Positions 2,439 to 61,755 of a stretch of 64,000 nt of DNA are shown in pieces (positions within the stretch are counted from its first letter, which is position 1; each line of letters starts with the position of its first letter). The DNA comes from Mobula hypostoma (Eukaryota). The notes under the pieces were generated by a model, which had not been told where the DNA came from, searched no databases, and saw nothing but the letters and a program-made list of their open reading frames with translations. The stretch spans positions 123,382,001-123,446,000 of the forward strand of contig NC_086097.1 of NCBI RefSeq assembly GCF_963921235.1, given 5' to 3'. The position numbers were made by a program, and so were the translations under genes.

Positions 2439-2466
2439 TATTTTTAAACAGAGCAGAACAAAACCT

Positions 2467-2734
2467 CTCATATCCCTTTTGCCAATCAATTGTCCAGCTC
2501 TTGGCTCCATCCCTCCCCCTCCTGTCTTCTCCTATCATTTTGGATCTCCCCCTCCCCCTCCCACTTTCAAATCTCTTACTAACTCTTCCTTCAGTTAGTC
2601 CTGACGAAGGGTCTCGGCCTGAAACGTCGACTGTACCTCTTCCTATAGATGCTGCCCAGCCTGCTGCGTTCACCAGCAACTTTGATGTGTGATTGCTTGA
2701 AATTCCAGCATCTGCAGATTTCCTTGTGTTTGCA
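2467..2734 (+). mobile_element. Penelope-like element terminal repeat (pLTR) fragment
   Basis: Pyrimidine-rich body, hammerhead motif, ...CCAGCATCTGCAG tail; flanked by AGAACAAAACCT/AGAATAAAACCT (candidate 12-bp TSD, one mismatch). Confidence 0.75.
2596..2633 (+). ncRNA. Minimal type I hammerhead ribozyme motif (Penelope-associated)
   Basis: TAGTC-CTGACGA-AGGgtctcggCCT-GAAA-CG-TC-GACTG: stem I, CUGANGA core, stem II, GAAA, palindromic ACGU stem III, GUC cleavage triplet. Confidence 0.75.
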
Positions 2735-2913
2735 AGAATAAAACCTTACTTTTATTCCCAACTATCAGTCAGAAATTAAATAGCTTATTACCTCATTTCT
2801 ATTTCTTTAGGGATGCAGTGTGGAACAGGCCCTTCTTGCTCTATGAACAGCACCACCCACCAGCATAGCTGTTTAATCACCAGCCTAATCACAGGACAAT
2901 TAACTTACTAATC

Positions 2914-3858
2914 ATAGAAACATAGAAAATAGGTGCAGGAGTAGGCCATTCGGCCTTCGAGCCTGCACTGCCATTTATTATGATCATGGCTGATCATCCA
3001 ACTCAGAACCCCGCCCCAGCCTTCCCTCCATACCCCCTGACCCCCGTAGCCACAAGGGCCATATCTAACTCCCTCTTAAATATAGCCAATGAACTGGCCT
3101 CAACTGTTTCCTGTGGCAGAGAATTCCACAGATTCACCACTCTCTGTGTGAAGAAGTTTTTCCTAATCTCGGTCCTAAAAGGCTTCCCCTCTATCCTCAA
3201 ACTGTGACCCCTCGTTCTGGACTTCCCCAACATCGGGAACAATCTTCCTGCATCTAGCCTGTCCAATCCCTTTAGGATCTTATACGTTTCAATCAGATCC
3301 CCCCTCAATCTTCTAAATTCCAACGAGTACAAGCCCAGTTCATCCAGTCTTTCTTCATATGAAAGTCCTGCCATCCCAGGAATCAATCTGGTGAACCTTC
3401 TTTGTACTCCCTCTATGGCAAAGGTGTCTTTCCTCAGATTAGGGGACCAAAACTGCACACAATACTCCAGGTGTGGTCTCACCAAGGCCTTGTACAACTG
3501 CTGTAGTACCTCCCTGCTCCTGTACTCGAATCCTCTCGCTATAAATGCCAGCATACCATTCGCCTTTTTCACCGCCTGCTGTACCTGCATGCCCACTTTC
3601 AATGACTGGTGTATAATGACACCCAGGTCTCGTTGCACCTCCCCTTTTCCTAATCGGCCACCATTCAGATAATAATCTGTTTTCCTATTTTTGCCACCAA
3701 AGTGGATAACTTCACATTTATCCACATTAAATTGCATCTGCCATGAATTTGCCCACTCACCCAACCTATCCAAGTCACTCTGCATCCTCTTAGCATCCTC
3801 CTCACTGCTAACACTGCCACCCAGCTTCGTGTCATCCGCCAACTTGGAGATGCTGCAT
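2914..3858 (-). mobile_element. 5'-truncated young CR1/HER1-type LINE with uninterrupted ORF2 C-terminus, inserted in a V-SINE (2808-4012)
   Basis: ORF 3003-3893 includes SKLADDTKL (FADD-like) through the ORF2 stop; (TTTCTATG)n tail; SINE halves on both sides. Confidence 0.95.
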
Positions 3859-4145
3859 TTACGTCTTTGGGCTGTGAAATGAAACCGGAGCACCGGTGGA
3901 AACCCATGTAGTCACGGGGAGAGCAAACAAACTCCTCTCTGGCAGAATTGAATTCTGAACTCCAACACCCCGAGCTGCAACAGCTTCGCACGGACCGCTA
4001 TGCCACCGTGATGACCCAGTTTTGCCCCATAATTTCTTGACACAAGAATGACTTGCCAGACTCCCAGGCAGTTAAAGAGAACAACAGAATCCCCAATATC
4101 CAGTAAATGGTCTAAGTGAGCATCCGCTGCCCTCTTATAGTATCA

Positions 4146-4322
<177 letters not shown>

Positions 4323-4544
4323 TTATGTAATATGAACACTTATGTCTGTACATGCCCAAATTTTATATTAGCTGTTTATATTTTATATAAACAACTAATA
4401 AATTATTACCTATATTTTATTTTGAATGCGCAACTTTGACGCTACACATGCTGGAACTGGAATAAAAAACAGAATGCTGGAAGAACTGTGGATTAAGCAG
4501 CATCTAAGATCCAAAACGTCAACTTAAATCTTCTTCTATGGAGA

Positions 4545-5195
4545 ACACAAAATGCTGGAGGAACTCAGCAGGTCGAGCAAAATCTATGGAGGGGAATGAA
4601 CAGTTAACATTTTGGGCCCAGACCCTGAATCAGGACTGGAAAGGAAGGATTGAAAGGCCAGAATAAGGAGGTGGGGGGGGGGGGAGGAAGGAGGACAAGC
4701 TGGAAAGTGATAGGCGAAACCAGGTGGGGGTGGGGGGCAGAAGTAAGAAGCTGGGAGGTGATAGGTGGAAAATGTAAAGGATTGAAGAAGGAATCCTAAA
4801 GGTGAAGAGAGTGGACCATGGGAGAAAAGGATGGAGGTGGGACACTAGAGAATTGGTGGGTGGCTCAGGGGAAGGGAGGTAATAAGAGGAGATCAGAATG
4901 GGAATAAAAGGGGGGGGGGGGAACAGAGAAACTACCAGAAGTCAGAGAAACCAATGTTCATGCCATCAGTTTGGAGGCTACCCAGACAGAATATGAGGTG
5001 TTGCTCCTCCAACTTGAGAGTGGCCTCATCGTGGCAGTAGAGAAGAACATAAACTGACATGTTGGAGTGGGAATGGGAAGTAGAATTAAAATGGGTGGCC
5101 ACCAGGAAATGCCACCTGTTGCGGCAGATGGTGCAAAGGTGCTCGGATATGTGCATTGCTCAGGATTTCCAGCATCTGCAGAACCTCTCGTGCTC
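4545..5195 (-). mobile_element. Penelope-like element fragment (GIY-YIG C-terminus plus pLTR)
   Basis: EHL...VATHFNSTSHS...KLEEQHLIFCLGSLQTDGMNI motif; degenerate hammerhead at 4601-4638. Confidence 0.85.
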
Positions 5196-5797
5196 CTTCC
5201 ACAGACACTGCTCGAAACAATGAGCTCTTCTACCATCCAGATTTTGTTATCATTTAGAGATATTCCTTTATCAATCAGTATCTGCCAAGGTATCAAATAA
5301 TGAATATGCCTGTAACAGTCCATTCTGAAGAGCTGAATAAAATAATTGTCTTTATGTGCTGCTCTTTCATAGTTTCAGGATGCCCCAAAGCACTTCACCT
5401 AAATTAAATCACCTGAAACAGGACCTGCCCGGGAAACCGATCACACAGTTCTTTCTAAGAGATTACATGGGTACAATGTTCCTCTGAGGTATTCGATCTT
5501 TCACACAAAAAAGCTCAAATCAATTATTATCTAAGGATTGCAAATGAGTAGAGTATAGAGGGGTCCAGGTATTGCAGATGAAACTTGAACAGGTACAGGT
5601 ACAGGTACAGGTACAGGTACAAGCAGTCAGAAAAGCAAGTGGGCACGATGGGGTTCGGGATACAGAAATAAGGAAATACCAGAATTGTACAGAGTTTTGG
5701 TGAGGTCACACCTAGAGTACTGTGTACAGTTCTGGAACTCCTATTTATAAAAGGATAACCTAGCCTTGGTGTAAGTCCATAAGAAATTCACAAAGCT

Positions 5798-6195
5798 GTT
5801 GGTGGCAGTCTATTACAAGTTGGTGTCTATCCATTACAGGTTCATGAAGCTGTTTGTGACAGCCCATTATAAATTCAGTTCATTACAGATTGGTGTCTGT
5901 CTATTACAGATTCACGAAGCTGCTTGTGACAGCCCATTACAAATTCAGTTCATTACAGATTGGTGGTGGTCCATTACAGATTCATGAAGCTTTTTTACAG
6001 ATTCAGTCCATTACAAGTTGGTGGTAGTCCATTACAGATTCAGTACATTACAGATTGATGGCAGTCCATAACTGATTCACGAAGCTGTCGATGGTGGTTC
6101 ATTACAGAATCAGTCCATTACAAGTTGGTGGTAGTCCATGATAGATTCAGTCCATTACAGATTGATGGCAGTCCATTACAGATTCACAAAGTTGT
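5798..6195. repeat. Complex minisatellite with core CAGTCCATTACAGATT
   Basis: About 18 copies of a CCATTACA-like core, with higher-order periods of 70 bp (5820/5890/5960) and about 107 bp (6004/6111). A (GGTACA)n microsatellite lies nearby at 5590-5620. Confidence 0.9.
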
Positions 6196-7574
6196 CTACA
6201 ATCCTTCCATAGAGATGAAGGTGTTTCCAATCACAAATGGTTGTCGACAGGATTTCTCAATTCTTTGAAGTGCCACCACAAATTCTGGCGCCATGACCAC
6301 AATGTTCAGCAAAACAACAAAACAAAACATACCAAATAACAAAGCAACGAAGCAAACCAAGATCCATTCATCCCTCCCACACACATACACATTCCCTTAA
6401 CTGCAGGAGAAGTCATCTTCTTCGGCGACCAGCCTCCAGCAGGCTCATACATTTGCAGATATTGAACTTCGACTTCCCTAGCAGACTTGAAGAGATTTGC
6501 AGATTTGGGGATCCAGACATCAGGCCTCGATTTCTGGACCTCCAATCGAAGACCAGGCCTCTAACTGGACTTCCATTCTTGACCTGCATGCTACTGTGGC
6601 AGGAAACTGGTGCAAACCCCTGGACTGTACTGGTGTTCCCTGAGCAAAGAATCATCTAAGTTGCCTGTGGGGTGGCCAGTGAGGGACAAGCCAGGATGAG
6701 TGATGGAGACAGTCAGCATGAAAACATGAGGCTCAGGGCTGCACCCAAACCAGCATGCTGACTACAAACCATGACCAGGAACTGGCAGCATCCACTGTGG
6801 CTTGGTCTGATTGCCTTTCTCCTCACCAGCAACTGAGTATGATGAAAATTCCTCTCTCCCGCTCCCTTCGACTGCACAGCTCTCCAGACCTCAGAATTAT
6901 CTCTATGGTGATGACCCGCCACTGAACTCATGCAGACAGATACAAGGACAGGGGGCGAATCACAAACAAGAGAAAATCTGCAGAAGCTGGAAATCCAAGC
7001 AACACACAAAGATGCTGGGGGAACTCAGCAGGCCAGGCAGCATCTATGGAACAGAGTAAACCGTCCACTCTTTGGGCCGAGACCCTTCATCAGGACTGAT
7101 GAAGGAGAGGGGGCGTATACTGCTTCTGTCACAGCCCATCACATTGCATGATATTGAGGAGATTTGTTATGTCAACAAAGAGTCCACCAAATTCCTACAG
7201 ATGTATCACAGAGAGCATTCTAACTGGTTGCATCACCACCTGGTATGGAGGGGTCACTTAAGCGAATCAGAAAAATGTGCAAACTCAGCCAGCTTTCTCA
7301 CAGAAACTAGGTTCCCCACCATCGAGGACCTCTTCAAAAGATGATGCCTCAAAAAGGTCACATCTATCATAAAGGACCCCCCCCCCACGACCCTCTTCTC
7401 ATTACTACTGTCAGAGAGGAGGTACAGTACAGGTGCCTAAAGGTACATACTTTTTAGGAACAGCTTCTTCCCCTCTGCCGTCAGATTTCTGAAGGGACAA
7501 TGAACCTATTAACACAACCTCACCATTTTCGCTCTTTTTTGCACTAATTATTGAATTTAAGCTTTTAATATACA

Positions 7575-8455
7575 CACTTAGTGGCCACTTTATTAGGTAC
7601 ACCTGTACTCCTGCTTGTTAATGCAAATATCTAATCAGCCTATCACGTGGCAGCAACTCAATTCATAAAAGCATGCAGATGTGACCAACAGGTTTAGTTG
7701 TTGCTCAGACCAAACATCGGAACGGGAAAGAACTGTGATCCAAGTGATTTTGACCGGGAATGATTGTTGGTGCTGGTAGGGATGGTTTGAGTATCTCAAA
7801 AACTGCTGATCTGGTGTTTTTTTTGCATACAACAATTTCTGGAGTTTACAGAGAATGGTGCGAAAAATATCCAGTGAGCAGCAGTTCTGGGGGTATATAT
7901 ATTTATAGGCATCCTTTAGTCTTGTGAGACCATCAATTTGCACCTTGGAAGATTTCCGGGCGCAGGCCTGGGCAAGGTTGTATGGAAGACCAGCAGTTGC
8001 CCATGCTGCAAGTCTCCCTCTCCACGCCACTGATGTTGTCCAAGGGAAGGGCACTAGGGCCAATACAGCTTGGCACCGGTGTCGTTGCAGAGCAATGTGT
8101 GGTTAAGTGCCTTGCTCAAGGACACAACACGCTGCTTCAGCTGAGGCTCGAACTAGCGACCTTCAGATCACTAGACCAACGCCTTAACCACTTGGCCACG
8201 CGCCAACACTGGGGGTATAAAACACCTTATTAATAAGAGAGCTCTGAGGAAAACGGCCAGACTGGTTCAAGCTGACAGGAAGGTGACAGTAACTCAAATA
8301 ACCACACGTTACAACAGTGGTGTGCAGAAGAGAATCTTTGAACGCACAACACGTGGAACCTTGAAGTGGATGGGTTACAGCAACAGAAGACCACAAATGT
8401 ACACTCAGTGGCCACTTTATTAGGTTATGGAGGTACTGGGTGTGGACACTGAGTG
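7575..8455 (+). mobile_element. Non-autonomous Tc1 element with nested CORE-SINE
   Basis: TIR CACTCAGTGGCCACTTTATTAGGTAC; remnant of the transposase N-terminal HTH; extra internal TIR at 8402. Confidence 0.85.
7898..8208 (-). mobile_element. tRNA-derived CORE-type SINE
   Basis: A box TGGCCAAGTGG, B box GTTCGAGCC, CORE-like GTGTCCTTGAGCAAGGCACTTAACC, TA-rich tail; perfect 11-bp TSD CTGGGGGTATA (7887-7897 and 8209-8219). Confidence 0.88.
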
Positions 8456-8559
8456 TATATTTCTTTGTCTGATTTACGGTGTTTTTATGTAATGCACTGT
8501 AGTGCTGCTGCAAAGCAAATTTCACAACAGGTCAGTGACATTAAACCTGATTCCAATCC

Positions 8560-9110
8560 AACATCAAAAAGAGTAAGACGAGGGAGCACACACCAATCCT
8601 CAGAGGGAGCAGAAGTGGAAAGAGTGAGCAGCTTAAATTTCCTGGGGATCTAACCTGGACCCAACATATCCATGCAACTATAAAGAAGGAATGACAGCAG
8701 CTATATTTCATGAGGAATTTGAGGAAATTTGGTTTGTCACCAAAAGCACTCGCAAATTTCTACAGATGTACTGTGGAGAACATTCTAACTGGCTGCATCA
8801 CCTTCTGGTATTGGGGTGGGGGAGGGGCTACTGCACAGGATCGTAGTAAGCTGCAGAGAGTTGTAAACTTAGTCAGCTCCATCACGCGCACTGGCCTCTG
8901 TAGTACCCACATCATCTTCAATGAGCAATGCCTCAAATTAGGACTTGTGCACATTAGGATTTGTGAACATTAGGATTAGGATTTGTCAGTCTTGTGTACT
9001 TTTTAGATTCTGGTGTACTTTTTTGTTTTACTGTGATTGTCTGCACGAAAATGAATTTCAAGGTATAATGACCTATATACATACTTTCATAACAAATTTA
9101 CTGTGAGATT
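8560..9110 (+). mobile_element. Rex1/Babar-like LINE 3' fragment
   Basis: LYFMRNLRKFGLSPKALANFYRCTVENILTGCITFWY motif. Confidence 0.7.
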
Positions 9111-21510: not shown

Positions 21511-22437
21511 AACTAGTCGGCAGGCCTCAAACCCCAATGAAATAGAGAAGTGTCTGTCCCAGCATGTGAAGTCAACTCCAGCGCACTAGGCAGATGAGAT
21601 CAACAGCGAGATCCAACGGCCAAGAAAGCAATTCTGTAACGCTTCAAGGAGAGCGACGTGCATGATAAGGCACAGATGAACACATGGTTATCCACAGCAA
21701 CCAAGGAAGACCCCAGTTTGTGACAACTTCTCGAACCACTGGACCCAAACTTCCAAGGTCGAGAGAGTCAAATTGTTCCAGTTTGGTTTTTGATAGGCTG
21801 CAAATGAACAAAATTAACACAGACACCTAGTGCCTTCATAGAATGCTTTCGATTATAATTGCATCTCCAAATCTTCATTTTCATTGTGACATTCAAAATG
21901 ATTGTCAATACCTTCAAATTCTTCATAGTTCCTAACTTGTTGAAGTTGTTCTTTATAGTAAATTTTTTGATATATACATTTCTTCTATAATACATGGTAT
22001 ATTTAGGTATTGCACTGTACTGATGCTGTAGAACAACAAATCTCACAATATCTGTCATTGACGACAAACCTAATTGTGACTCTAACCTACGTTATCATGC
22101 CGCTGACTTTTTTTTACTTTTCTTACTGTTCTTCAACAAGTTAGCACTTAACTCACATAATTCTCAAAACTTCCGCCATCTCCAACAGGATCCCATCACC
22201 AAGCACATCCTTTCCTCTCCCCCGCCCACTTTCCGCTTTCCACAGAGATCGCTCCCGCCGTGACTCCCTTGTCCATCCATCCCTCGCCACTGATCTCCCT
22301 CCTGGCACTCATCCTTGCAAGTGGAACAAGTGCTACACCTGCCCCCACACCTCCTCCCTCACTACCATTGAGGGTGCCAAACTGTCCTTCCAGCTGAGGC
22401 AACACTTCACCTGTGAGACCGTTGGAGTCATCTACTG

Positions 22438-23224
22438 CAGCGGACCCCAACTACCAGGCCGCAGAGCACGTGCTACCAGGCCGCGAGGAAACGATACGAG
22501 TCAGCTGCACCTTTCCTCATTCCCTGTCACGCACTGTTGAACTTGAACATAGGGTTGCCAACTGTCTTGTATTTGCCGGGACATCCCGTATATTGGGCTA
22601 AATTGGTTTGCCCCATACAGGACCCCCCTTGTCCCGTATTTCCCCCGCTAAGGTAGAGCATTCCTATGAAACTTTTTGTGCCAAAATGGCGTAAAGCGAA
22701 GAACCAATTACCATTAATTTATATAGGAAAATATTTTGAGCATTCCCAGACCTCAAAAAAACCTACCAAATCATACCAAATAACACATAAAACCAAAAAT
22801 AAATAACACTAATATTTAGTAAAAGCTGGAATGATATGATAAATACACAGCCTATATAAAGTAGAAATAATGTATGTACAGGATAGTCCGGAAGGTGAAG
22901 GTAAAACCGATTTGTGGGGGAAAAAAAAATCGGCACGTACGCGCATTGCGCACATCACATGCACATGTCACGTATGCACACACAGGTGCCCGCGCAAGGC
23001 TTCATGGTCATGGTAGTCTTTCCAGGGGTAAAGTGTCCCGGAATTTGACTGCTACTTTTGTCCCTTATTTGGGAGTGAGAAAGTTAGCAACCCTAACTGT
23101 AAAAGACATGTTGAGGTGAGTTTAACCCTACTTGAACACCCCCCCCCGCCCCCGGTTGGCCGGTCCGCAAGAATATTGTTAATATTAAACCGGTTCATGG
23201 TGTAAAAGAGGTTGGGGTCCCCTG
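22438..23224. mobile_element. hAT-superfamily MITE (outer)
   Basis: TIRs CAGCGGACCCCAAC and GTTGGGGTCCCCTG; perfect 8-bp TSD ATCTACTG (22430-22437 and 23225-23232). Confidence 0.92.
22550..23130. mobile_element. hAT-superfamily MITE (inner, TAGGGTTGCCA-type TIR)
   Basis: Starts TAGGGTTGCCAAC, ends AACCCTA; perfect 8-bp TSD CTTGAACA (22542-22549 and 23131-23138). Confidence 0.9.
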
Positions 23225-24664
23225 ATCTACTGTATCCAGAGCTCCCGGTGTGGCCTCCTGTATATCGCTGAGACCCAACATAGATTGGAAGACCACTTCA
23301 CCGAACACCTACGCTCCATCCGCCGAAAAAAGCAGGATCACCTGGTAGCCACCCATTTCAATTCTACTTCCCATTCCCATTCCAACACATCAGTCCATGG
23401 TCTCCTCTACTGCCACAATGAGGCCACACACTTTTTTTCCAGTCCTGAAGAAGGGTCTCAGCCCAAAACGTTGACTGTTTATTCCTTTCCATTGATGCTA
23501 TCTGACCTGCTGAGTTCCTCCAGCATTTTGTGTGTGTATTGCTCGGATTTCCAGCATCTGCAAAATCTCTCATGTTTGTTGAAGTAGTAATATCATTTCA
23601 TTTTCACTCCTGGCCATTTCTGGCATCTCCAAGCCTGAAGGCTTGAAACACAGTCAGCAAAACAACTCTGAATCGTCATACTGCTTATTTCTCACCAACT
23701 ATCAGTGACAAAAATCACTGCATTTTTGAACACAACTGACATTCCAAGCACAGAGTAGTGTCTAACAGCCACACAAATTCACACGACTGAACCTCCTCAG
23801 AAACTGTTTGGCAACAGTGTCCGGTTCCAATTAAGCCACAAAGAGTCTGAAATAAATAAAGGGAATCCCGGCTATTTTCTCAATTAGATTTTGTTCTTTA
23901 AAAGTTGCCCTAAATAAGCAACTACCCTAATGAACCGATGGAACAATTAACCACACCAAATATTGATTTGATTTAGTTTTTTTACTGTTTATAGCTCTTT
24001 ATGGTAACTTCTTAAATATATACATGTATACTTCTTATTATAGCTTATGATATATTTTATGTCTTGCACTGCACTGATACTGTAGAACAGGTTTCACAAC
24101 ATTTGTTAGTGATAATAAACCAGATTTTGATTCTGACCCACATTGCTGTGCTGCCTGACTTATTTTCACTTATTTTCTTATTTTTCTTCAAAAAACAATA
24201 TGCTCGCCTGAATCACAGAAACAAGTCTACAGGGATCAGCTTAAAGAGCAATGTATGTCAACGCATACAATGGTCTCTCAGAATTACAATGGAAATCAGC
24301 CCAGCAAACATCTCCCCATCTTCCAGTGGGCTCAAACTCACATCGTTCTATGTTGACATGGATGTGGAAGAAGAACGAGCAGTGAAGTCAACATTACTGA
24401 GAAGCAGATTGGACATTACTCTTCAAACACCCGCAAACTCAAAGCTAACTACAGAAATCCAATTTAAAGATTCAGATTTACTTATCACACATAAAATCAA
24501 AACGTACAGCACGATGTGTCACTTGCACTAACAGCTAACACACCCGAGGGTGCGCTGGGAGCAGCCTGCAGGGGTTACCACACATTCTGGCACCAGCACA
24601 CCATGTCCGCAGTGCAACACAGGACACAACAAAAACAGAAAAAGATAAGTGACAAAATAACAGC

Positions 24665-32210: not shown

Positions 32211-33283
32211 CACTCAGTAACCACTTTACTAGGTACACCTGTACACCTGCTCGTTAATGCAAGTATCTAATCAGCCAATCGTGTGGCAGCAACTCAATGC
32301 ATAAAAGCATGCAGACATGGTCAAGAGGTTCCATTATTGTTCAGACCAGACATCAGAATAGGGAAGAAATGTAATCAAAGTGAATTTGATGGTGGAATGA
32401 TTGTTGGTGTCAGACAGAGTGATTTTTCGTCTTTTCACAAACAACAGTCTCTCAAGTTTACAGAGAATGGTGCGAAAAATTAAAAACATCTGGTGAGCGG
32501 CAGTTCTGTGGACAAAAATGCCTTGATAACGAGAGAGGTCAAATGAGAAAAGCCAGACTGATTCAAGCTGACAGGAAGGAGACAGTAACTCAAATAACTA
32601 CACGCTACAACAGTGGTGTGCAGAAGAGCAACTCCCAATGTACAACCAGTTGATCCTTAACATCTGCCAGATGATGCTGAGGATGTTCTACAAGTCTGTG
32701 GTGGCCAGTGCTATCATGTTTGCTGTTGTGTGCTGGGGCAGCAGGCTGAGAGTAGCAGACACCAACGGAATCAACAAACTCATTCGTAAGGCCAGTGATG
32801 TTGTGGGGATGGAACTGGACTCTCTGACGGTGGTGTCTGAAAAGCGGATGCTGTCCAAGTTGCATGCCATCTTGGACAATGTCTCCTATCCACTACATAA
32901 TGTACTGGTTGGGCACAGGAGTACATTCAGCGAGAGACTCATTCCACCGAGATGCAACACAGAGCGTCATAGGAAGTCATTCCTGCCTGCGGCCATCAAA
33001 CTTTACAACTCCTCCCTTGGAGGGTCAGACACCCTGAGCCAATAGACTGGTCCTGGACTTATTTCCTGGCATACTTTACATATTACTATTTAACTATTTA
33101 TCGTTTTATTACTATTTATTATTTATGGTGCAACTGTAATGAAAACCAATTTCCCCCAGGATCAATAAACAAAGTATCACTATGACTATGACTATGACTA
33201 TGACCTTGAAATGGTTGGGCTACAGCAACAGCATACACTCAGTGTCCGCTTCATTATATACCTAATAAAGTAGCCACTGAGTG
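32211..33283 (+). mobile_element. Tc1 MITE with nested Rex1/Babar-like LINE
   Basis: TIRs at both ends and a degenerate internal TIR at 33236; transposase N-terminal remnant. Confidence 0.85.
32653..33203 (+). mobile_element. Young 5'-truncated Rex1/Babar-like LINE
   Basis: Open ORF MLRMFYKSVVASAIMFAVVCWG...KSFLPAAIKLYNS; AATAAA and (CTATGA)n tail. Confidence 0.85.
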
Positions 33284-34944
33284 AATTAATAAGTTATTAC
33301 AGTCCTGTCCTTTAGTAAAGTGTTTCAAAACAAAAGCATTCTGGGGGCTTCACATACTGCTCATCAAACACTTCAGAAAGAGCAAGGAACTTTGAATGAT
33401 TTTTCAGAACAAACACTGAGATAACCTTTCCACATCTCCCTGATCCCGACACAAAAGGGACACAAAGAGGCAGATTTTCTGGGCAGCCATCTGGAATAGT
33501 TATGCGATTAAGGTTCACATCAGTCACGACCTAATCAAATGGTAGAACAGGCCAGAGCAGTGAAATAGTTTATTCCTGTACCTATGCACGAATAGTAAAT
33601 CTGGATATCTTTGTCACAGACAAAGACATTGTCCAGATAATGGAATCATACCCACTGATGAACGATAGCTCGATCCATTCCTCAGCCACAGTACTTTGAG
33701 GCAGCCGCAGTAACATAGCAGTTAGCTCAGCGCTCAATGGGTGTTTGACCTGAAACATTGTCTCTGTTTCTCTTCCCACAGATGCAGGCCGACCTGCTGA
33801 ATATTTCCAGCTTAATCTGGTCCAATTAAGTTCCTGGTCAGTGGCAATATCCAGGTGGTTGATGGTGGGATCTCGATAATGGTGACACCAATGAATGCCA
33901 AACTCTCCCTAGATGGAGAAGATTAGTGTGTGACATTCCAGTGACATGAATGTTATTTGCCAACTATCAGCGCATGCATGAATACTGTCAGGTAGCATAG
34001 TAGTTCGCGCAATCGCTTTACAGCACCGCCGATCACTCAATTCCCGCCACTGCCCGTACGTCCTCTCTGTGATCGCGTGGGTTCCTCCCACACTCCAAAG
34101 ATGGACAGGTTACCGTTAGTAATGTTACGTAGGCGCTGGAGGTGTGCCATCTCTTGCGGGCTGCCTCCAGCACATCCTCAGACCGTGTTGCTTGTTGATG
34201 CACAATGGCGCATTTCACTGCATGACCAATAAAGCCGATCTTTAAACCTCTTATTCATCCTGGTCTTCTGCGTTGCCAATCTGAATACTGGGGTCTGGAA
34301 GCCTGACTATAACCCTGGCCACTGAGCACACTTAGAACAGACACGTTGTTGAAGACAAAACCATTTTATTTTCTGTTGTCATTCAACCTCTGGAGAGAGT
34401 TGATAATAACAGATTTTCAGCATCTTTTAAAAAAAACCCTCTCCCAATTAGGATTACAAGTGCTAACAAAATAAATACAGTTTTTACGCTAAATAACTGC
34501 TCACCACAACCGAGCAATCAGTGTAAATGTATAATGAGATGTCCGTTGTCAGAATTGTTGGACCAGTCATGTGTGAATGTGCTGTACGCATAATGTAAGC
34601 AGGTGAAAAGAAAGTCGAGGAGCACAATAGATATGAAACCCGTAAAGAATCAGAGTGACTCGCGCTCTCCCCTTGACCGCATGGGTTTCATCCGGGTGCT
34701 TTGGTTTCCTCCCACAATCCAAAGACGTATCAGTTAATAGGCTGATTGGTCACTGTAAGTTGTTCTGTGATTAAGTTAGCATTAAATAGGTGGGTCGCTG
34801 GGCAGCATAGCACGTTGGGCCAGAAGGGCCTGTAGGTTGTTGGGTGGATGGATAGATGGATAGATAGATAGATAGATAGGTGAATAAGGCCCCTCAAGAT
34901 TAGCCTGCTGTTAAAAAGAGACTATGGCTAATAAACAACATTCA

Positions 34945-36280: not shown

Positions 36281-37545
36281 CGGCAACGCCTCCCAAAGTC
36301 CAACCCATCATCCCCATCATGTGAGGTGGAAAGCAGCAACCAAACTTCAGATTTGAGCCGTACATAAACTCAATGATTCTTCTTCTAGGCGAAGTGAGAA
36401 TTAAGTATCTGCAACATCTGATGTACAAAATTCACTATAACTGATGACAAAGAAGCTTTTCGACATTCCATGATCTGAAAGTACCTTTAAAATCAACAAT
36501 CTGTGATCATATAGAACAAAATCAAAGAGAGATAAATATCAAAAACACTTGTATCCTCCAGTCACGTCTTTGAAATCCTACCCCAAGAATAACAAAATAA
36601 ATTTGCTTGGAGACACAAACGGAAACTACTACTAGCTTATCTACTCCTCAAATTGGAGAGCAGAAAGCATGATGCAACACAAGCTACCTTTGAAAAGCAG
36701 TGGTGCAGTTCTTACAGAAAAGGACAAAAGAGACTGACACACACACACACACACAAAATGCTGGAGGAACTCAGTTGGTCAGGCAACATCACCGATGGGA
36801 ATCAGCAGTCGATGTTTCAGATCAGGCTGAGATTCTTCATCAGTACCGGAAAGGAAGGGGGAAGAAACCAGAATAAGAAGGTGAGGGGAGGGGAAGGAGG
36901 ACAAGCTGGCAGGTGACTGGTGAAGCCCGGGGAGGGGTGGATGAAGTGAAAAACTGGGGTGATGGGTAGTCTAGTCATGTCTCATGGCAATATTCAGAAT
37001 CAGAATCAGATTTAATATCACCGACATACATCATGAAATTTGTTACCTTAGTGGCGGCAGTACAATGCAATTAAATAGTTAAATTAAAAATAGTAGTCCA
37101 AAAACAAAAATGATTTTGTAAAGAGTGAGGTAGTTCAATGTCCATTTAGAAATCGGATGGCAGAGGGGAAGAAGTTGTTTCTGAATCACTGAGTGTGTGC
37201 CTTCAGGCTTCCGTACCTCTGTCCCGGTGGTAATCCTGGGTGATGAGACATAATAAGCTACAAGTACGAGTGAATAATCCTGTGTCACAGGTACAGAGAT
37301 TCTCTGAAATGCCCTCAAACTGCCAGTTATTTGGTATCTTTAACCGCCAGTTATTTAGTATCAATGTCACCTTATGAAATCGAAAATGAGATAAAGACTC
37401 CTGATCTGGAAGTAAGATAATATGAGCAAAAACCAAAAGCAAAGAATTTTAAAGAGGTTGTGTATGGTCTAGGCAATTGAAGTCTCTGACACCAGGAGCA
37501 GGAAGCAAGGAACTGAATGTACAAATGTCCCAAGATAATGAAATA

Positions 37546-39676: not shown

Positions 39677-40509
39677 TGTTACGTACCCCATAACTGGGTT
39701 GCCAAACCAGCAGAAATGGACCACTTAGTTGGAGTCTGAATTACTGGAACTAAGAAAGTTTTATTAAAGAAATAAGTAACACAGTACTCCAATAGTAAGG
39801 ATATAAATGCAACAGGTTAGCAATGATAAAACACACATGTACACAGAACTAGGATAATAGGATCAATCAAGCTCTATCGCAGTCTAGGGGTAAAATGATC
39901 AGTCTCAAGTGACACAGAGTTCAGTTCAGTTTAGTTCAGTTCGCAGTAATCGCTGTCGTGCCGTTGGGGAGAGAGAGAGAATGAATATGCAAATTCTCGA
40001 TTCAAACAGACCTTGATGTTCCTCGCAGTTAGCTTTCGGGCGAGCCCTTTGTAATGTCTTCTGAGGTCACCGACTGTGACCCCTCTGTTCCAGATACGAT
40101 CGTTTTTCTGCGGTGAACTCGGCACCCAGGCAAAGGCGGACACACACACCAGGTTCCCGCCGACCCATACCTTTCTACCCTGTGCATCTATGGCTGGTCC
40201 CGCAACCAGACCTCAAAACTCCCACCAACTTGTGGGGGGGGGGGCACACCGCTTTCAGGGTCTCGTTACCTCGTGGAGTCGTGTGTCTGTTGCCTTAGCG
40301 AACCTGTCCCTTTTTATCCCCCTGCTGGGGTATCGCCTGTCCATCAAACTTCAAACAGTTCAGGGTTCAAAGTCACCGGTCTCTGACAATACTCAGAACC
40401 GTGTCTCCTTTCGGTAATCTCCCTTGTCTCTCTCTTATTAGCACCTTGCATGTACCCCCATTGTCCTCTTATCAGCATCAATCTTCTGATAACTGGTTCT
40501 TTTGTCACA
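39677..40509 (-). repeat. 3' LTR
   Basis: TGTGACA...GTAACA on the minus strand, immediately preceded by the polypurine tract (40510-40521). Confidence 0.93.
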
Positions 40510-40679
40510 TCCCTACCCTTCAAAGGATTTTTACCGGGGTAAAAATAATAGGCTGGAATACATTCTTAGATACACACAAGTATACATGTTCATCAGCTAT
40601 TTGGCTAATACAGAGAATTTTAAGTTGTCAACACCTGACAGACAGTCAGCAATCACATTTTCCGTTCCTTTTATATGTG

Positions 40680-41670
40680 TTATTTTAATAATCCTCTAAA
40701 ACCAGGCTCCAACTTAGCAAACTTCATAGTGGCCGAAAACACTAATGAGTTGTGATCAGTGTAACTTCTCAGTGATTTTCGCCCCGGACACAGATAACAA
40801 GGGTCGTCCCATACCAACTTAGCATTCTTTGGAAAGGGTTTAGTAAGAGGGTGGGTACTATCCGCAAGGGTGTTTTTTTTTCTGCAAAACTTCCGATAGT
40901 ACCCCACCATCTCCAAGAACCTTCTCAGGGCTCTCTTGTCTGACGGGGTGGGGACTTCAGAGATAGCCCGCACCTTAGCTTGCATCGGAGCCAGCTGCCC
41001 CTGTCCTACCACAAATCCCAGATCAGTGACCTTTGCGCGGCCGAACTCACTCTTTACGAGGATCACTGTCAGGCTGGCTTCAGACAGCCATTTAAACAGC
41101 TCCTCCCACGTGTTACTCCAGACCACTACATCGCCAATATACAATTCTGTGTTCTTTAGCTCGTTTGTCACTGAATTAATCATTCTATAGGGGTGTTGCT
41201 CACTAGGCTGACCTAATGTGGCAACAGCTCCATGTCCCAGCTCTTTGCATCATCTCGGGACATCCGGACCTATGTGGGCGTGCCGTTTAATTAGCTCTCT
41301 TAGCGGTTCGCTTTGTTCGGGGATTAAGGGAGAGAACTCAACAGCAAAGTTGGTCAACACAATAGAGTTCTCCCATCTGGTCAGCACTACACTTATCTTT
41401 TCAAAATGGGCTTTCCCCTTATCAGGTGGCACCCTAGCATCATTAATTTTCATGATATCACCAGCTAGATCTGTTTCCTGATCGTGGCGAGCTTTTAACA
41501 TGTTAATATCCTCCAACTGTGTTAACTCACGTCTGCAATAGTCAATAACATCCTTCCTCCTGTGCAGCCAGTAAAACTCTTTCATGATTCCACCAACTGT
41601 TTTCTCCCCCCAACATGTCCACCGAAGGGTATCTTGTGGGGCAGGTTAAGAATCTCATCCCCATAAATTT
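40680..41670 (-). pseudogene. Vestigial integrase, then RT/RNaseH fragments
   Basis: H..PFGGH.G...FYW...DVIDYCR (IN zinc-binding region), INMLK (IN C-terminus), LYIGDVVV (YIDD mutated), LRRFLEMVGYYRKF, YTDHN.L. Confidence 0.85.
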
Positions 41671-41676
41671 TTGGCA

Positions 41677-43664: not shown

Positions 43665-43740
43665 TTCTGCTGTTTGCCTTTTCCTTCTTTCGGGAATTTT
43701 AACCCAATCAATTTATCCCGTCCCAAATTTAGGATTCAAA

Positions 43741-43759
43741 ATCGCAGACGAATACCCCA
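43741..43759 (-). other. Primer-binding site, degenerate tRNA-Pro type
   Basis: TGGGGTATTCGTCTGCGAT, 4 nt after the 5' LTR, compared with the canonical tRNA-Pro PBS TGGGGGCTCGTCCGGGAT. Confidence 0.6.
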
Positions 43760-43763
43760 CTTA

Positions 43764-44046
43764 GGTTATGTACCCCGTAACTGGGTTGCCAAACCAGCAG
43801 AAATGGACCACTTAGTTGGAGTCTGGATTACTGGAACTAAAGAAGTTTTATTAAAGAAATAAGCAACACAGTAATCAAAAGGATATAAATGCAACAGTTT
43901 AGCAATGATAAAACACACATGTACACAGAACTAGGATAATAGGATCAATCAAGCTCTATCGTAGTCTAGGGGTAAAATGATCAGTCATCAAGTGACACAG
44001 AGTTCAGTTCAATTCAGTTCGCAGTAATCGCCGTCGTGCCATTGGG

Positions 44047-44077
<31 letters not shown>

Positions 44078-44602
44078 TGAATATGCAAATCGGATTCCAC
44101 ACAGACCTTCGATATTCCTCGCAGTTAGCTTTCGGGCGAGCCCTTTGTAATGTCTTCTGAGGTCACCGACTGTGACCCCTCCGTTCCAGATACGATCGTT
44201 CTTCTGCGGTGAACCCGGCACCCAGGCAAGGGCGGACACACACACCAGGTTCCCGCCGACCCGCACCTTTCTACCCTATGCGTCTATGGCTGTTCCCGCG
44301 ACCAGACCTCAAAAACTCCCACCAACTTGTGGGGGGGCACACCGCTTTCAGGGTCTCGTTACCTCCTGGAGTCGTGTGTCTGTTGCCTTAGTGAACCTGT
44401 TCCTTTTTATCCCCCTGCTGGGGTATCGCCTGTCCATCAAACTTCAAACAGTTCAGGGTTCAAAGCCACCAGTCTCTGACAATACTCGGAACCGTGTCTC
44501 CTTTCGGTAATCTCCCTCGTCTCTCTCTTATTAGCACCTTGCATGTTCCCCCATTGTCCTCCTATTGGCATCAATCTTCTGATAACTGGTTCTTTTGTCA
44601 CA
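43764..44602 (-). repeat. 5' LTR
   Basis: Begins TGTGACA on the minus strand; terminal CA mutated to CC; followed by the PBS. Confidence 0.93.
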
Positions 44603-48728: not shown

Positions 48729-49870
48729 AGGTGAGTTAAGTTATTCTTGTCAGACACCTTCTCCCTGAACTTATGTTTCTCAGATGAATCAAACCCCCAG
48801 CCCTTGCCCTCAGTCACCCTGGGCCCCTAGCCTCTATGCCAAATCCGCCCTGTGACCTCAGTGCTCTAACACACAAACATAAATAATTCATTCTTGTTAT
48901 GTTCCCTGCCCGAGAAAGCTGCGATTGATAAAAGAAAACCTATCCACGCTTGCAACCCCCTCCCTCAATGAGTAGCCTTCCTCTTGCTTAATAGTATTGG
49001 TCTATGGTATGAAAAAGGTTGGGAACCCCTGCCCTACAACCCCCAACACTGAGATCTTGGACTTCCTGCCCCCCCCCCATCCCATCAGCACTGGACACTG
49101 GTGCAGTGTGCAACAAGAACTGGGTGACCTGTTCAGTGGTACCTGACACACTGGGTCTATGATGCCCATGAAAGTCCCAACTCCACAACAGAAGACAGGC
49201 ACTGTCACGATGGTTTCTTGCCTCACCCCTTCCCCTCTTGCCACCGAGTGTTCAGATCAGGGTTTTGAGTAATCTGTCAATGTTTTGGGTCGAGACCCTT
49301 CACCAGTAATGGAGAGGAAGGGGAAGCCTTCATCTAGTTTCACATATCATTTCTCAGCTTGTAGTCCTTCCCCTCCCTCCACCTTTGAATTTCGGCTTCT
49401 TCCCCCTTTCTTTCCCGTCCCAATGAAGGAATATTGGCCCAAACTGTCAATTGCTTATATTCCTCTCCATGTTACTACCTGGACTGCTGAGTTCCTCCAG
49501 CATTGTGTGTGCGTTTGTCTGTGTGTGTCTGTTGCTCTGGATTTCCAACATCTACAGAATCTCTTGTGTTGATAAATAACTTATTAACTAAACAAACTAT
49601 ACAGTTATCCAACACATAATAGACATATTAGACCATTCCATCTGCATATTGGACCAAGGATTTAGGTACATCTCTTTCCACGACTGTATTCTGTGGTTGA
49701 CACCACTGTTATTTTGACAAGCTATCAACAAATATCACTCATAAAACTTCCTGAATATGACTCACATATCTGAACCATTCTTCAAGTAGTCCAGCTGTAT
49801 GCTGGACTGTGTAATGTGCAGGTCTAAAGCACAAAAGAGTATCAATAATATTATTATAGCTTTCACCTAC

Positions 49871-50709: not shown

Positions 50710-52229
50710 TATTTTCCAATTGTTAAAAATGGACTTCTCCAAAAATGTGTTACATCTTATTCCATTTGGAATCAAGAAAAACTATAGAAAGGGTACTAGC
50801 TGTGTCATACGTTGTCACATCTTTGAGAGATACTGCCAGTATTCCAGCCCCAGAAACGTGACTTTCAAAGGGCCATCGGGTTACGTAATAGCCCTTTGCC
50901 AATTAAGGTGTCAGTAAGGGAAACTGCTGAAAAGTATCTCACTGTTGCCTAATGTCCTTTGTGTTACAAACAGAAAACCTTACCCAAGTGAGCTTGTTCC
51001 CAAAGGGCCACCTATCTTGTCGGCTTTGGTAATTTGCACATAACTCAAAAAAAAACCTGTAGTATTTCTGGACACAAGAAATTCTGCAGATGCTGGAACC
51101 CCGAGTAACGCACAAAATGCTGGAGAAACTCAGCAGGTCAGGTAGCATCTACGGAGAGGAAAAAGTAGTCAACGTTTCCAAATGAAACACTGTACCTGGT
51201 ACGTCTGAACGTGGTATACGGTACCTCTGGGAAGCTCTCTTCAACATGACTACTTTGTTCACAGTAAACTCAGCCTTTGTCAGTTTAGTGATTTTATTGT
51301 TAGTCATCCAAGAATACCAATGAACAGATAGTATTACTCTATTAAATTAATTTTTTAAAATCAATTTTAAGGAATAATAGGATAAGTAGCCTTTTACTAA
51401 CAGGAAATCCAATTTATTTTTAAACACATGATATGTCGTTCTGATTAATTCTGACCAATGCCTCACTGTATGATACAGCTGCTAAAGAAAACAGTGCTTA
51501 ATATTTCTAATGACATTACATGGTCAAGCCTTTAGACTTATGCTCAGATCTTCTGGGATGTAGAACTGTCATTTTTCATGTAGTTTAACTTTTTTATGCT
51601 TGCTGCTAATTTTATACAATCACCTGTGCACAGCTAATTGTTCAGTGATTTTTCTAGTAATTACAAGCAGATGCTTCGGTATTTTTATAGAAACTTCTTA
51701 GCCATCAGTAGCAGGTGTCACACCACTGAAATCTGGCTGTTTTGTGGGTTAATTACTATCGCTGGAATTATTGTTATCTCCAGTCATAGTATGAGACAAC
51801 ACGACTACGTTTTCTTTTGCCTTTCTTTGGTCATTCTTTGCTTGTGTAAGACTTGATAAAATTGCTAGCAATAAGTTTTATGCCTCATTCTTGACTTCTG
51901 AAGAACCTCTGGATCACAAAGGCATCAGGATCCTACAGATCCGATGACAGAAAGAAACATTTTTTGAATCTAAATTCTAATTCTATGAAGATGCTACGAC
52001 TGCAACTACGGTGAGTAGTCGATGAAGTAACTTGATGTAGCAATACTAATATTTTTCTCTACACGTCCTCCATCAGAGAAACTGGATAGAAAGCATTCTC
52101 GTGCAGTAATAGTAATATTATTCTCCCCACATTAAATTACTCCATTAACGACTCACAATACTACTTCATTAAAAATGAAATCAGGTGAAGTGAAAAACCG
52201 CTGTTAAATTCAATGCAACACACACATTC

Positions 52230-52775
52230 TAGCATGTTGGTCCATGGACTCCTCTACTGCCACGATCAGGTCACCCTCAGGTTGGAAGAGCAACACCTTA
52301 TATTCTGTCTGGGTAGCCTCCAACCTGACAGCATGAACACTGATTTCTCTAACTTCCAGTAATTTTCCCCCTTCCCCTTCTCCGTTTTTTCATTCCCCCC
52401 TTTGGCTCCCCTCTTACCCTATCTTTTCTCCTCACCAGCCCGTCACTTCCCTTTGCTTCCCCTCCTCCTTCCCTTTCTCAAAGAGTCCACTCTCCTCTCC
52501 TATCAGATTCTTCAGCCCTTCCACTTCTCACCTCCCACCCCCCAGTTTCTCATGACACACCCCCTCCATCACCCACCCACCTTCCCCCTCACCCGGTTTC
52601 ACCTAATACCTTCCAGCTTGCACTCCTTCCCCTCCCCCCACATTCTTATTCTAGCTTCTGCCCCCTTCCGGTCCAGTCCTGATGAAGAGTCTTGGCCCAA
52701 AATGTCAACTGTTTATTCCCCTCCATGGATCGGATCTGACCTGCTGAGTTCCTCCAGCATTTTCTGTGCATAACA
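52230..52775 (+). mobile_element. Penelope-like fragment
   Basis: RLEEQHLIFCLGSLQPDSMN remnant; degenerate hammerhead at 52674-52711. Confidence 0.85.
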
Positions 52776-53952
52776 CACGGAATATTTGGGATCGACAGCA
52801 CAGAAACAGGTTATTCAGCCCAACTATTCCATGTTGGACCTTCTGTGCCAACTCACTCCTCCTCCCAACTTTCTTGGTCTAAATCTATCAGATTGACTCT
52901 CTCCCCCTCTTGTTCATAAGCTTTCTGAAATACATCTATATTATTCACTTCAACCAAATTCTTCACTATGGCTGGGAATTTTCAAGGAAATACTCTGGCC
53001 CTACCAGTACAATTCTGATAGAAGTTTTTAAATATGAAATTTTAACATTGTTTATCTTTCCACAGTTGCCACCTGGCATGCCGAGTGTTTCAAGCACCTT
53101 ATGTTTTTAGTTCAGGTTTCTAACACCTGCAGCATTTTAGTTATTTTCTAGCTCTATAATTGTCAGGTAATTTTTCTTTGGATTTTTACAATGTTCTTGA
53201 GGTAATTTAATACTTATCACTACTCCCTTCACTCAGATTTGTATACTCACAGCAGAATGGGGGCGGGGGGAGGGAAAAAAAGTGGTCCCTTGAAATTAGT
53301 AACTTATTGTTCTAATTTCAACACATACTCTACTGTCTGTATTACTGTATTGTATTCTTGGAATTACTGTTTATGCATTTTTCACACAATAAACAAAGCT
53401 TGTAGCACAGGGCGAGAAACAAAGATTATGAGCTGGATAAACATCTAAAACTGCAGCTTCGGTTAGAAGTGGGGCCTATGATTCAAGGATCAACTTTATT
53501 CTTCAATACATTTACAAGTATTGGGAATTTGCTGTGGTGTATCAGTCAGGCTGCGACATGCAAAAACAAAACAACAATATTCAACAATTATAATGAATGA
53601 AGAAGTACATACAGTCTAAATCTTAAACAAATAAAGTTAGAGGTTAAAGAATATGGAATAAAGTATGCATAGATCAATAAATACCAGCATGTATTTACAA
53701 TGTACGCAGTATTATGAAAAGTGGTTTCAAGTGTTTACAGAGCTGTGTGGTGCAGCGATGAGGCAATAGATACAGGGAGTGGGGGATCAGGGCTAACTAG
53801 AATGGTTGATCAAATTACCTGCCTAGGGAAGAAACTTTTAAGATGGCATTAAGTTTTTATTTTAATAGTGCTTTCCAGAAGGGAGCTTTTGGAAAAGGCA
53901 GTTTGCAGGGCGAGTAGTGTCCACAACGATTTTTCCCACCCGCTGCTTTGTG

Positions 53953-58139: not shown

Positions 58140-59202
<1,063 letters not shown>

Positions 59203-61755
59203 CTAAAGCCTTTCATCTTTAATTTTCTGCAGAAAGAAAGGAAGAAAGTTTTAACTAGGAGAAGAATTAGGCTGTTCGGCCCATCATCCCCTCTGCCATT
59301 ACATCATGCTGATTTATTATCTCTCTCAACCCCATTCACCTGCCTTCTCCCCGTAACCTTTAATTTCCCCTACTAATCAAGAAACCTGCCAACCTTCGCC
59401 CAATGGCTCTGACGTGCCCATCATGAACTGCTTCAAGAAGCTGGTCCATAAAACCATAAGACATAGGAGCAGATTTACACCTTCAAACATGGCTGATTTA
59501 TTTTCCCTCTTAACCCCACTCTCCGGCCTTCTCCCTGTAATCTTTGACATCCTTACTAATACATAAAACTTTACAGAACAAATGTCATCTAAACTTACTG
59601 CAGATTAACATGCTACCATTTCTTATCAGCATTAGACAGCACACTGATTTTAATAAAGCCTGTCAAGCAGTAATTCAAAACCTGTTGACCACTCCCTTTG
59701 CAGTCCCTTCCTTCACAGTCAAGAGCAGTGTACAGTCACTGTATTTTCTGAATTCGTTCTTTGTATTGTGCACATCTTGAAATTGCAAGTACAAAATGAA
59801 TTTAAAATGAATAGTTATGATTTTCATAATTGTTGCCAGACCTTAAGCAAGAGAGATTCTTTATAAATTCACCTCAAATCCAAGGATTCACAACCACTAT
59901 TTAAATTAACGTTTTGCATTATATTCTCCTACTAGCATGATTTAATGTCTGCTGCCTTCCACCCTGTCACAGATTGCCCTTTTATTTTGCTCATCCTCCC
60001 ATCTTCCCTGCTCAGTACATTGTTACTTCGCTAACATCTGTCATTTCTGCGTGGTGAAAGATCAGTAGCCTGGAACATTAAGTTTACTTTCTACAAGTCA
60101 GCAGAGTTGTACTCCAGCTGAAGCTAAAACATTATTATTTTCCAGTGGGGCATTAATCCTACAAAGTCTTGTCTTGTTCCTACTGCACCAACCGCTGCCA
60201 GGCTATAAACGTGCAGGAGCAATCTGTGGTTAAGTGCCCTGCTCGAGGACACAACACGCTGCCTCAGCTGAAGCTCGAACTTGCAACCTTCAGATCACTA
60301 ATCCAACACCTTAACCACTTGGCCACACGCCAACAAGTAATTATGCTGCAACAAACATCTGCTTCAGAATGGAAAAGAAATGGCAAGGAAGTAAAGGAGT
60401 CTTTGGACCCAGACCACCAGGTTCAGGAATAGTTACAAGCTCTACAAACATCAGGATCCTACATTAGCGTGAATAACTTCACTCACCTCTGAGCTGATTC
60501 CACAACTATGGACTCACTTTCAAGGATTCGACAACTCACAGTCTCAGTAATATTTATTACTTACAGTATTTACTACTATTCCTCCAAGAGGAGCACAACC
60601 TTGTTGTAGGGCTTGGAGGCTTGCATGCCTCAATAACCAGGAGAGCTATGTCGGCTGGAGTCAGGGCATTATGCTTTGGCTCTTCGTAGGGTCACTCATG
60701 CCAAATAGGTCAAAGGCTAGAGGCCAGAATAAGAGTGGTCTGCCGGTCCTCCAGGTTCAGGGGGTTCAGCTCAAGGCTAACAACCCTGACTGGTGAATCA
60801 AAATTGTTACAGGACAGCTATGAAGAATCCTTCTACATATGGTATTCCTGAGTCTCAACCAGGGACTTGCATGACTGACAGTAGTGAAAAACGAGAGGAA
60901 GCTACTGACATGATGAAGGAAACCCTGAACACCGCCAGAGATAGAGGACCTTTATTGTTGCCCTAAACGCTAGCACATGTAGCAGGCAGTAAGTGGTTAT
61001 TATTATTATTATCATTATTGGGTTTTTTGTGCATTCACAGTTTGTCTTCTTTTGAACATTTGAACATTTGTCCATCTTTGTGCATAGTTTTTCAATGCTT
61101 TTATTGTATTTCCTTGTATCTACCTTGAATGCCTGCAAGAAAATGAATATCAAGGAAATATATGGTGACATATACGTACTTTGACAATAAATTTGCTTTG
61201 AACTTTGAAGAACAGGAGCATGCTGCTGCAGGATAGGGGTAGGATTTAGGGCTCAATGTAGTTGGAGCTGGGCACCTATCCAGGATACTATATGTGCTGA
61301 ATAGTTCTTTATTAAATTACAGACCTATGGTGTAAGTAGAAGTTTAGCAAGTTCTGCAAGAAGCCAAGGCATAAACACAAGAGATTCTGCAGGTGCTGGA
61401 AATGACACACAAAATGCTGCAGGAACTCAGCAGGTCCTCAGCAGGTCAGGCAGCATCTAAACAAAGGAATAAACCCTCAATGCTTCAGGCCGAGACCCTT
61501 CTTTCATCAGGACTGGAAAGGAAGGGGGAGAAAGCCAGGAGAGGGAGGGTGAAGTGAGAAGCTGGGAGGGATAAATTGCCATAATTCAGAGAAACTGATG
61601 CTCATACCAGTAGGTTACCTTTTCTCTGCTTAATTGCAGAGGTGTTTGCATGAATGGTTGCTGTGAGGTTAAAGTGTGTTACTGGGCCCTCAAATACCTA
61701 TCCTGACACGTTGCTTCATTCCAAGTTCCCATGAATGCTAAAGGGCTGGAACCTA

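Follow-up and report, generated by a model that had tools for sequence, protein, structure and literature searches.

The closest described relatives of the motif analysed here are the minimal hammerhead ribozymes (min-HHRs) of Penelope-like elements (PLEs), whose published consensus consists of a U-rich leader, NNN, CUGANGAH, G...C, GAAAN, a palindrome, NUH and NNN (Cervera & De la Pena 2014, PMC4209133). As described there, a min-HHR monomer was inactive and dimers weak, copy numbers amount to ~4,000 in coelacanth and ~9,000 in Xenopus, and none of the 56 published rows comes from a cartilaginous fish. Among Xenopus tandem dimers, one of nine cut and eight did not (bioRxiv 10.64898/2026.07.22.740005). 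The PLE hammerhead of Anolis is reported to cut only with the element's protein, cleavage being dispensable for insertion in vitro, and the RNA-seq data described for this species include no reads ending at the cut site (PMC11167929). Type I hammerheads are also carried by non-LTR retrozymes: up to 120,000 hammerheads are given for axolotl in the retrozyme papers (PMC7229834; bioRxiv 10.64898/2026.07.22.740005), the second of which describes both PLEs and retrozymes from its single sampled chondrichthyan, the retrozymes having an average consensus of 363 bp and often occurring as monomers. Within the PLEs, a CX2-5CxxC linker is described as a mark of Neptune and Nematis, not of Penelope or Poseidon (bioRxiv 10.1101/2021.04.23.441226). 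Our literature search listed no paper specifically on the Penelope hammerheads of rays or sharks; the supplements of the 2026 preprint may list the family.

Here we analyse a 64-kb stretch of the Mobula hypostoma genome, referred to as the window, which contains such a motif. It is very probably a young passenger copy in the pLTR of a Penelope-like element, lying antisense in a ray intron and likely not cutting. The analysis adds a batoid Neptune-type family to the hammerhead class described in 2014.

A minimal type I hammerhead motif in a ray intron

We searched both strands of the window with a strict type I descriptor, consisting of a helix I of 4 bp, CUGANGA, a helix II of 3 bp (one extra base optional), GAAA and UH. 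It has a single match, compared with a mean of 0.02 matches in 100 dinucleotide shuffles:

2596..2633, plus strand: minimal type I hammerhead motif (descriptor match, fold and published consensus)

The letters are those given in a preliminary description of this DNA, with stem I, CTGACGA, GAAA, the palindrome and the GUC triplet all present. Helix I (2596-2600/2629-2633, TAGTC/GACTG) comprises four Watson-Crick pairs and one U.G. C3 is position 2601 and opens the core CTGACGA (2601-2607, CUGACGA in RNA), which is followed by A2608, an extra base after A9 located between A9 and position 10.1. Helix II (2609-2612/2617-2620) is made of G2609.U2620, two G-C pairs and a U.G pair that closes a CUCG loop, with pair probabilities of 0.87-0.97 in the fold of the 38-mer. 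GAAA occupies 2621-2624 and the GUC triplet 2626-2628, which places C17 at C2628 and the predicted scissile bond 3′ of it. The palindrome ACGT lies at 2624-2627, without a helix III. All 11 invariant core letters are present, and H17 is C. The minimal type I architecture proposed earlier is thus borne out by the core, the extra A, the short helix I and the palindrome without helix III. The AGG/CCT register drawn for stem II, which pairs A2608 with U2620, was rejected: the fold gives it a probability of 0.02, against 0.96 for G2609.U2620.

Compared with the PLE min-HHRs described in PMC4209133, the motif has the same U-rich leader, short helix I and CUGANGA with an extra H, the same helix II beginning with G, the same GAAA-CG-UC without helix III, and the same placement within the 3′ repeat of PLE copies that are truncated, with solitary copies numbering in the thousands. 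It differs in that helix II closes with G.U where the consensus has G-C; by our hand count, eight of the 56 published rows also close with G.U, among them the Schistosoma family that was assayed in vitro (PMC4209133). Every testable feature places the motif among the PLE minimal hammerheads. Classification as a canonical type I hammerhead was considered and rejected, as the motif has no intramolecular helix III and no Rfam hammerhead match: none of the eight Rfam matches in the whole window up to E=5 is a hammerhead. Rfam misses the batoid Penelope hammerhead family entirely.

The minus strand of the window carries a host gene, with a frame at 58570-59100 that is 100% identical to a CCDC102A-like protein of Mobula hypostoma (P0005):

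59157-58543, 50073-49870 and 4257-4149, minus strand: host coding exons (protein mapping)
4149..4257, minus strand: third of the coding exons located for the CCDC102A-like host gene (AG/GT edges)

Host residues 308-547 were not found in the window (best E 0.67). The motif lies ~1.5 kb into the intron that follows exon 4257-4149 and, as the preliminary description held, it is antisense to the host, the exons being on the minus strand and the motif on the plus strand; the reverse complement, which is the strand present in the host pre-mRNA, has no descriptor match. The host protein (58543-59157(-)) is ~54% identical to a CCDC102A-labelled protein of another Mobula (P0050). Because this identity is only ~54%, we regard the host protein as a CCDC102A paralogue, possibly the CCDC102B orthologue.

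The motif resides in the terminal repeat of a truncated Penelope-like element

The contigs of four sequencing runs (X1, X4, X6 and X12) were aligned to the window at 85% likeness. Their depth begins to climb at bins 2448-2491 and drops beyond 2733, and the loose ends of family contigs are located at 2464 and 2732-2733, delimiting the following element:

2467..2734, plus strand: 5′-truncated pLTR fragment of a Neptune-type Penelope-like element, ~270 bp, with a pyrimidine-rich tract, the hammerhead and a 3′ tail
2455..2466, plus strand: left copy of the target-site duplication (TSD), 12 bp, one mismatch with the right copy; its last 2-3 bases also fit the element
2735..2746, plus strand: right TSD copy, 12 bp, pairing with 2455-2466

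Among 2,000 random segment pairs, eight reach 11 matching bases. The focal copy itself has no coding sequence. The consensus of the loose ends upstream of 2464, translated by hand, reads FLPGPPVP-stop, the last eight residues of the ray protein P0002; since the upstream contigs encode the end of this protein, the focal copy is a 5′-truncated terminal-repeat piece of a Penelope element.

Relatives of the focal copy within the window point to the same source. A frame at 23189-23470, directly upstream of the sibling motif at 23440, matches four of 20 candidate proteins, all from rays (P0001-P0004). P0001-P0003 match Pfam GIY-YIG with E values of 0.0005-0.002 and scores of 18.8-20.9 bits, under the curated cut-off of 22.6, and P0004 has no GIY-YIG match in Pfam. 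The linker CX4CX2C (CKWNKCYTC) is found in the window frame 22145-22540 and in all four proteins, which also have a YIDD motif upstream. Pfam matched neither of the two Penelope fragments of the window itself, and their identity is assigned via these longer relatives. Mapping with the ray proteins places coding remnants at 5147-4938(-), 22136-22438 and 23222-23428(+), and 52204-52359(+); GIY-YIG remnants thereby lie upstream, on the same strand, of three of the seven siblings named in the preliminary description. GIY-YIG remnants beside siblings, the protein end upstream and the Neptune-type linker support the Penelope origin proposed there, and 2596-2633 is a min-HHR in the terminal repeat of a 5′-truncated Penelope-like copy.

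The family shares with Neptune EN+ PLEs (Craig et al., bioRxiv 10.1101/2021.04.23.441226) a reverse transcriptase followed by a C-terminal GIY-YIG domain, a CX2-5CxxC linker, a pLTR with a hammerhead, and inverted 5′-truncated partner copies as described for that group; it differs in that the focal copy has no coding part. The clade is assigned by the linker. The Poseidon element PAc of Anolis carolinensis likewise has a vertebrate PLE minimal hammerhead in its pLTR, but it belongs to another clade and its cleavage is reported as protein-dependent (PMC11167929).

Sibling copies and CpG decay of the core

An iterated profile search detects 19 family fragments in the window. All seven siblings named earlier are present at their positions:

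4532..5147, minus strand: older sibling in which a GIY-YIG coding remnant (5147-4938) precedes a decayed hammerhead (4638-4601)
6957..7110, minus strand: short sibling, decayed hammerhead 7098-7060 (G12A, A15.1G, H17G)
22136..23584, plus strand: interrupted Penelope remnant, CX4CX2C linker 22136-22438, GIY-YIG piece 23222-23428, hammerhead 23440-23477 (G12A)
36727..36935, minus strand: sibling with all invariant core letters kept, 5-base insertion in the helix II region, helix I broken
49252..49578, both strands: back-to-back pair, short minus copy (motif 49305-49275) and plus copy (motif near 49415), both decayed
52204..52805, plus strand: older sibling with the C-terminal remnant of a GIY-YIG domain (52204-52359), a pyrimidine tract and the hammerhead 52674-52711 (G12A)
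61366..61567, minus strand: sibling, hammerhead 61515-61475 with a 4-base insertion in the core and A15.1G

At least five hammerhead-bearing copies lie outside the named siblings, near 14300(-), 33727(+), 49415(+), 51200(-) and 53010(+). In local alignments, the siblings are 78-89% alike to the focal copy over the aligned parts. Their description as decayed holds in general, except that the copy at 36805(-) keeps all invariant core letters although its stems are broken. Thirteen copies could be placed, six on the plus and seven on the minus strand, which shows no strand bias in a number too small for power. As for the 5′ starts of these 13, only one is at the helix I edge, two are within 15 bases upstream of it, three fall inside the motif and one is unresolved. 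None of the 19 fragments is a same-strand copy adjoining the focal motif. The tail 3′ of the hammerhead (2645-2735) is the best-conserved part among copies, with nested hairpins predicted by folding; it may act as a protein-binding or priming structure.

G12, the general base of the hammerhead (PMC6155905), is changed to A in five of the seven named siblings. Of the 12 aligned copies, six have CA at positions 11.1-12, five TG, one GG and none CG, a CA/TG pattern that is the loss of one CpG on either strand. The two outcomes are not equivalent: CA kills G12, whereas TG leaves a G.U pair and an intact core. Over the seven named siblings, CpG positions are changed in 23 of 70 cells versus 18 of 196 elsewhere (P=1e-5), and this excess, together with G12>A in five siblings, upholds the earlier reading of GAAA to AAAA as CpG decay. 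The same siblings keep their core no better than their stems (4/63 versus 14/112 changes, P=0.30). When all 11 other copies are taken, the core appears better kept (12/99 versus 42/176, P=0.018), a comparison inflated because the core served both to find and to align the copies and because two subfamilies are mixed. Covariation over the 12 decayed copies of the window is no higher than in shuffles (0.205 versus 0.200; 202 of 500 shuffles as high), a set too small and too degraded to reveal selection on source elements.

A recent insertion of an abundant family

One contig of organism D, a related genome, spans the orthologous site, which is empty. In this contig of 1,048 bases, 14 letters separate the part aligning to 2264-2450 from that aligning to 2759-2900; the flanks are ~91% alike (28 differences in 329 bases). 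The empty site rests on this single contig, and a deletion is conceivable given 14 letters where about 16-28 are expected. A contig of organism B begins 26 letters inside the 3′ end of the element, under the 31-letter rule, and only suggests that the insertion is common to this organism; the match in X1 may be the window's own source.

The focal copy differs little from its subfamily. Only positions 2657 and 2658 differ in ~98% of the element depth, and the other differences listed are subfamily splits. The divergence is about 1-2%, a figure biased by the pre-selection at 85% likeness, and at this divergence an intact 12-letter core is expected. At position 2620 (11.1), C makes up 36%, 37%, 26% and 67% of the depth in X1, X4, X6 and X12, respectively, and G2621>A is absent among the rows listed at 15% or more (three further rows exist). 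T at 2620 prevails in organisms A and B (~64%) and C in organism D (67%). This shift may reflect the replacement of one subfamily by another, with loss of the CpG at G12. T11.1 probably stems, in organisms A and B, from a source element and not from private decay; the likeness filter favours the window's letter. The intactness of the focal copy would follow from its young age and from T11.1, which lacks the CpG whose decay turns G12 to A.

Given these observations, domestication of the focal copy to regulate the CCDC102A-like gene from within its intron, after the manner of the RECK-type amniote hammerheads, appears extremely improbable. The copy is intronic and is the sole strict motif of the window, and domesticated intronic hammerheads, also type I motifs, are described (PMC6155905). 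Those hammerheads are conserved at one site across species, whereas the focal motif is absent in organism D, antisense to its host and without helix III, and its intactness is what ~1-2% divergence predicts. A conserved intronic ribozyme was accordingly rejected on the empty orthologous site in the organism D contig.

Family contigs aligned number 35,854-62,978 in each of the three large runs, whereas the run guessed to be RNA has 7,577; X1 alone has 56,325, of which 8,115 are at 99% likeness or more. The depth summed over the motif is 6.6 million compared with ~9 on the unique flank, depth not being a copy number. Allowing for overlap among short contigs, we infer from these values, roughly, a family of the order of 10^4-10^5 copies. 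The very large genome-wide family claimed earlier is supported by tens of thousands of near-identical contigs per genome run, and the copy number appears to be above the range of 4,000-9,000 given for coelacanth and Xenopus (PMC4209133).

A few contigs in all four runs jump from 2631-2633 back to 2597, so that the motif stands head to tail with 0-2 letters between. These joints have a depth of 10-66, and the contigs would represent cis-dimers of the motif that occur naturally at a few loci elsewhere in these genomes. They also fit a descent of the focal copy, as a monomer, from a non-LTR retrozyme instead of from a truncated autonomous element. Like the focal copy, such retrozymes have a type I hammerhead, are pLTR-related and occur in a chondrichthyan, their short consensus and frequent monomers adding to the likeness (PMC7229834; bioRxiv 10.64898/2026.07.22.740005). 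However, retrozymes are described as tandem arrays, and the focal copy is a single TSD-flanked unit with no adjoining same-strand copy; family contigs continue upstream of 2464 into the end of a protein-coding frame, and the starting points of the siblings vary, some falling within the coding region. We consider a retrozyme origin very improbable and retain the truncated Penelope-like copy.

The best-supported rows listed for loose ends include those at 2597 and 2598 in X1, X4 and X12, and only that at 2597 in X6; an end at 2629, the cut site, is not among the 24 rows listed (1,632 further rows exist). Departures at 2597/2598 involve hundreds of contigs per DNA run, those at 2598 (176-259 contigs) having long unrelated flanks with an agreement of ~0.33. 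They look as if many short insertions begin at the outer edge of helix I and not at the cut site, although the 2597 ends are confounded by the different upstream sequence of the older subfamily.

Predicted folding and the question of cleavage

Helix I forms all five pairs in the isolated 38-mer (probabilities 0.55-0.98) but falls below 0.01 with the flanks 2580-2650. More generally, helices I and II do not exceed 0.02 with native flanks, whether 2580-2650 or the whole element, and persist in 2590-2640. In the monomer fold, 2603-2606 pair with 2625-2628 with a probability of 0.98, leaving an open-core share of 0.0006. The modelled active dimer (-11.5 kcal/mol) lies far above two closed monomers (-22.0 kcal/mol) and an inactive duplex (-30.3 kcal/mol), energies from a nearest-neighbour model that takes no account of tertiary contacts in the core or of assistance by protein and was run with no cleaving hammerhead folded as control. 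The focal core is thus softly predicted to be sequestered and not to self-cut alone. Together with its status as a young, solitary, lineage-specific insertion and with covariation no higher than that of shuffles, this predicted sequestration lends no support to any special standing of the intact copy.

Published work suggests how the parent element would operate. The ACGU palindromes of two motifs would base-pair with each other, thereby building helix III, and a cut after C17, probably protein-aided, would process the element RNA. The focal copy has no tandem partner, is antisense to its host and has a core-sequestering predicted fold, for which reasons it will likely decay like its siblings.

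Young solitary copies could instead be cut in vivo in trans, together with another transcript of the family and with or without the element protein, the family then forming a pool of latent sites. Any copy could pair with any other by way of the ACGU palindrome, all invariant core letters are present, near-identical contigs number tens of thousands per genome run, the family is found in the run guessed to be RNA, and the Anolis PLE cleaves when its protein is supplied (PMC11167929). Against this stand the unfavourable energy of the active dimer, the failure of most Xenopus tandem dimers to cut (bioRxiv 10.64898/2026.07.22.740005), the reported lack of Anolis reads ending at the cut site (PMC11167929) and, for the focal copy, the antisense transcription that would be required. 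We judge trans cutting quite improbable. A broader conjecture, which we rate as very unlikely, is that U11.1 of the youngest ray subfamily, by removing the CpG whose decay kills G12, lets tens of thousands of young solitary copies retain their core for longer and serve as latent transcriptome-wide cut sites in trans or with protein; sense intronic copies would in that case be purged and antisense ones left, as here. A passenger copy that likely does not cut is the reading we prefer for the focal motif. This very abundant and recently active family offers a test bed in this respect, as the strand bias of intronic copies with an intact core and the C-to-T change at 11.1 could reveal whether or not Penelope hammerheads cut in vivo.

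Other features of the window

The window also contains an LTR-retrotransposon-like element at 40055-44510, delimited by near-identical repeats (40055-40417 and 44151-44510) and including, besides broken pol-like pieces, a frame on the minus strand (41677-43356) that encodes SCAN and zinc-knuckle domains. An open frame of 302 codons at 3003-3911(-) has a weak Pfam RVT_1 match (E 0.007) and resembles the end of a CR1/L2-type LINE. Finally, a short inverted-repeat element is present in three copies (2379-2443, 8397-8460 and 33231-33288), which score 26-32 bits with Rfam mir-9256 for a cut-off of 80 and are probably not a microRNA but a miniature DNA transposon.
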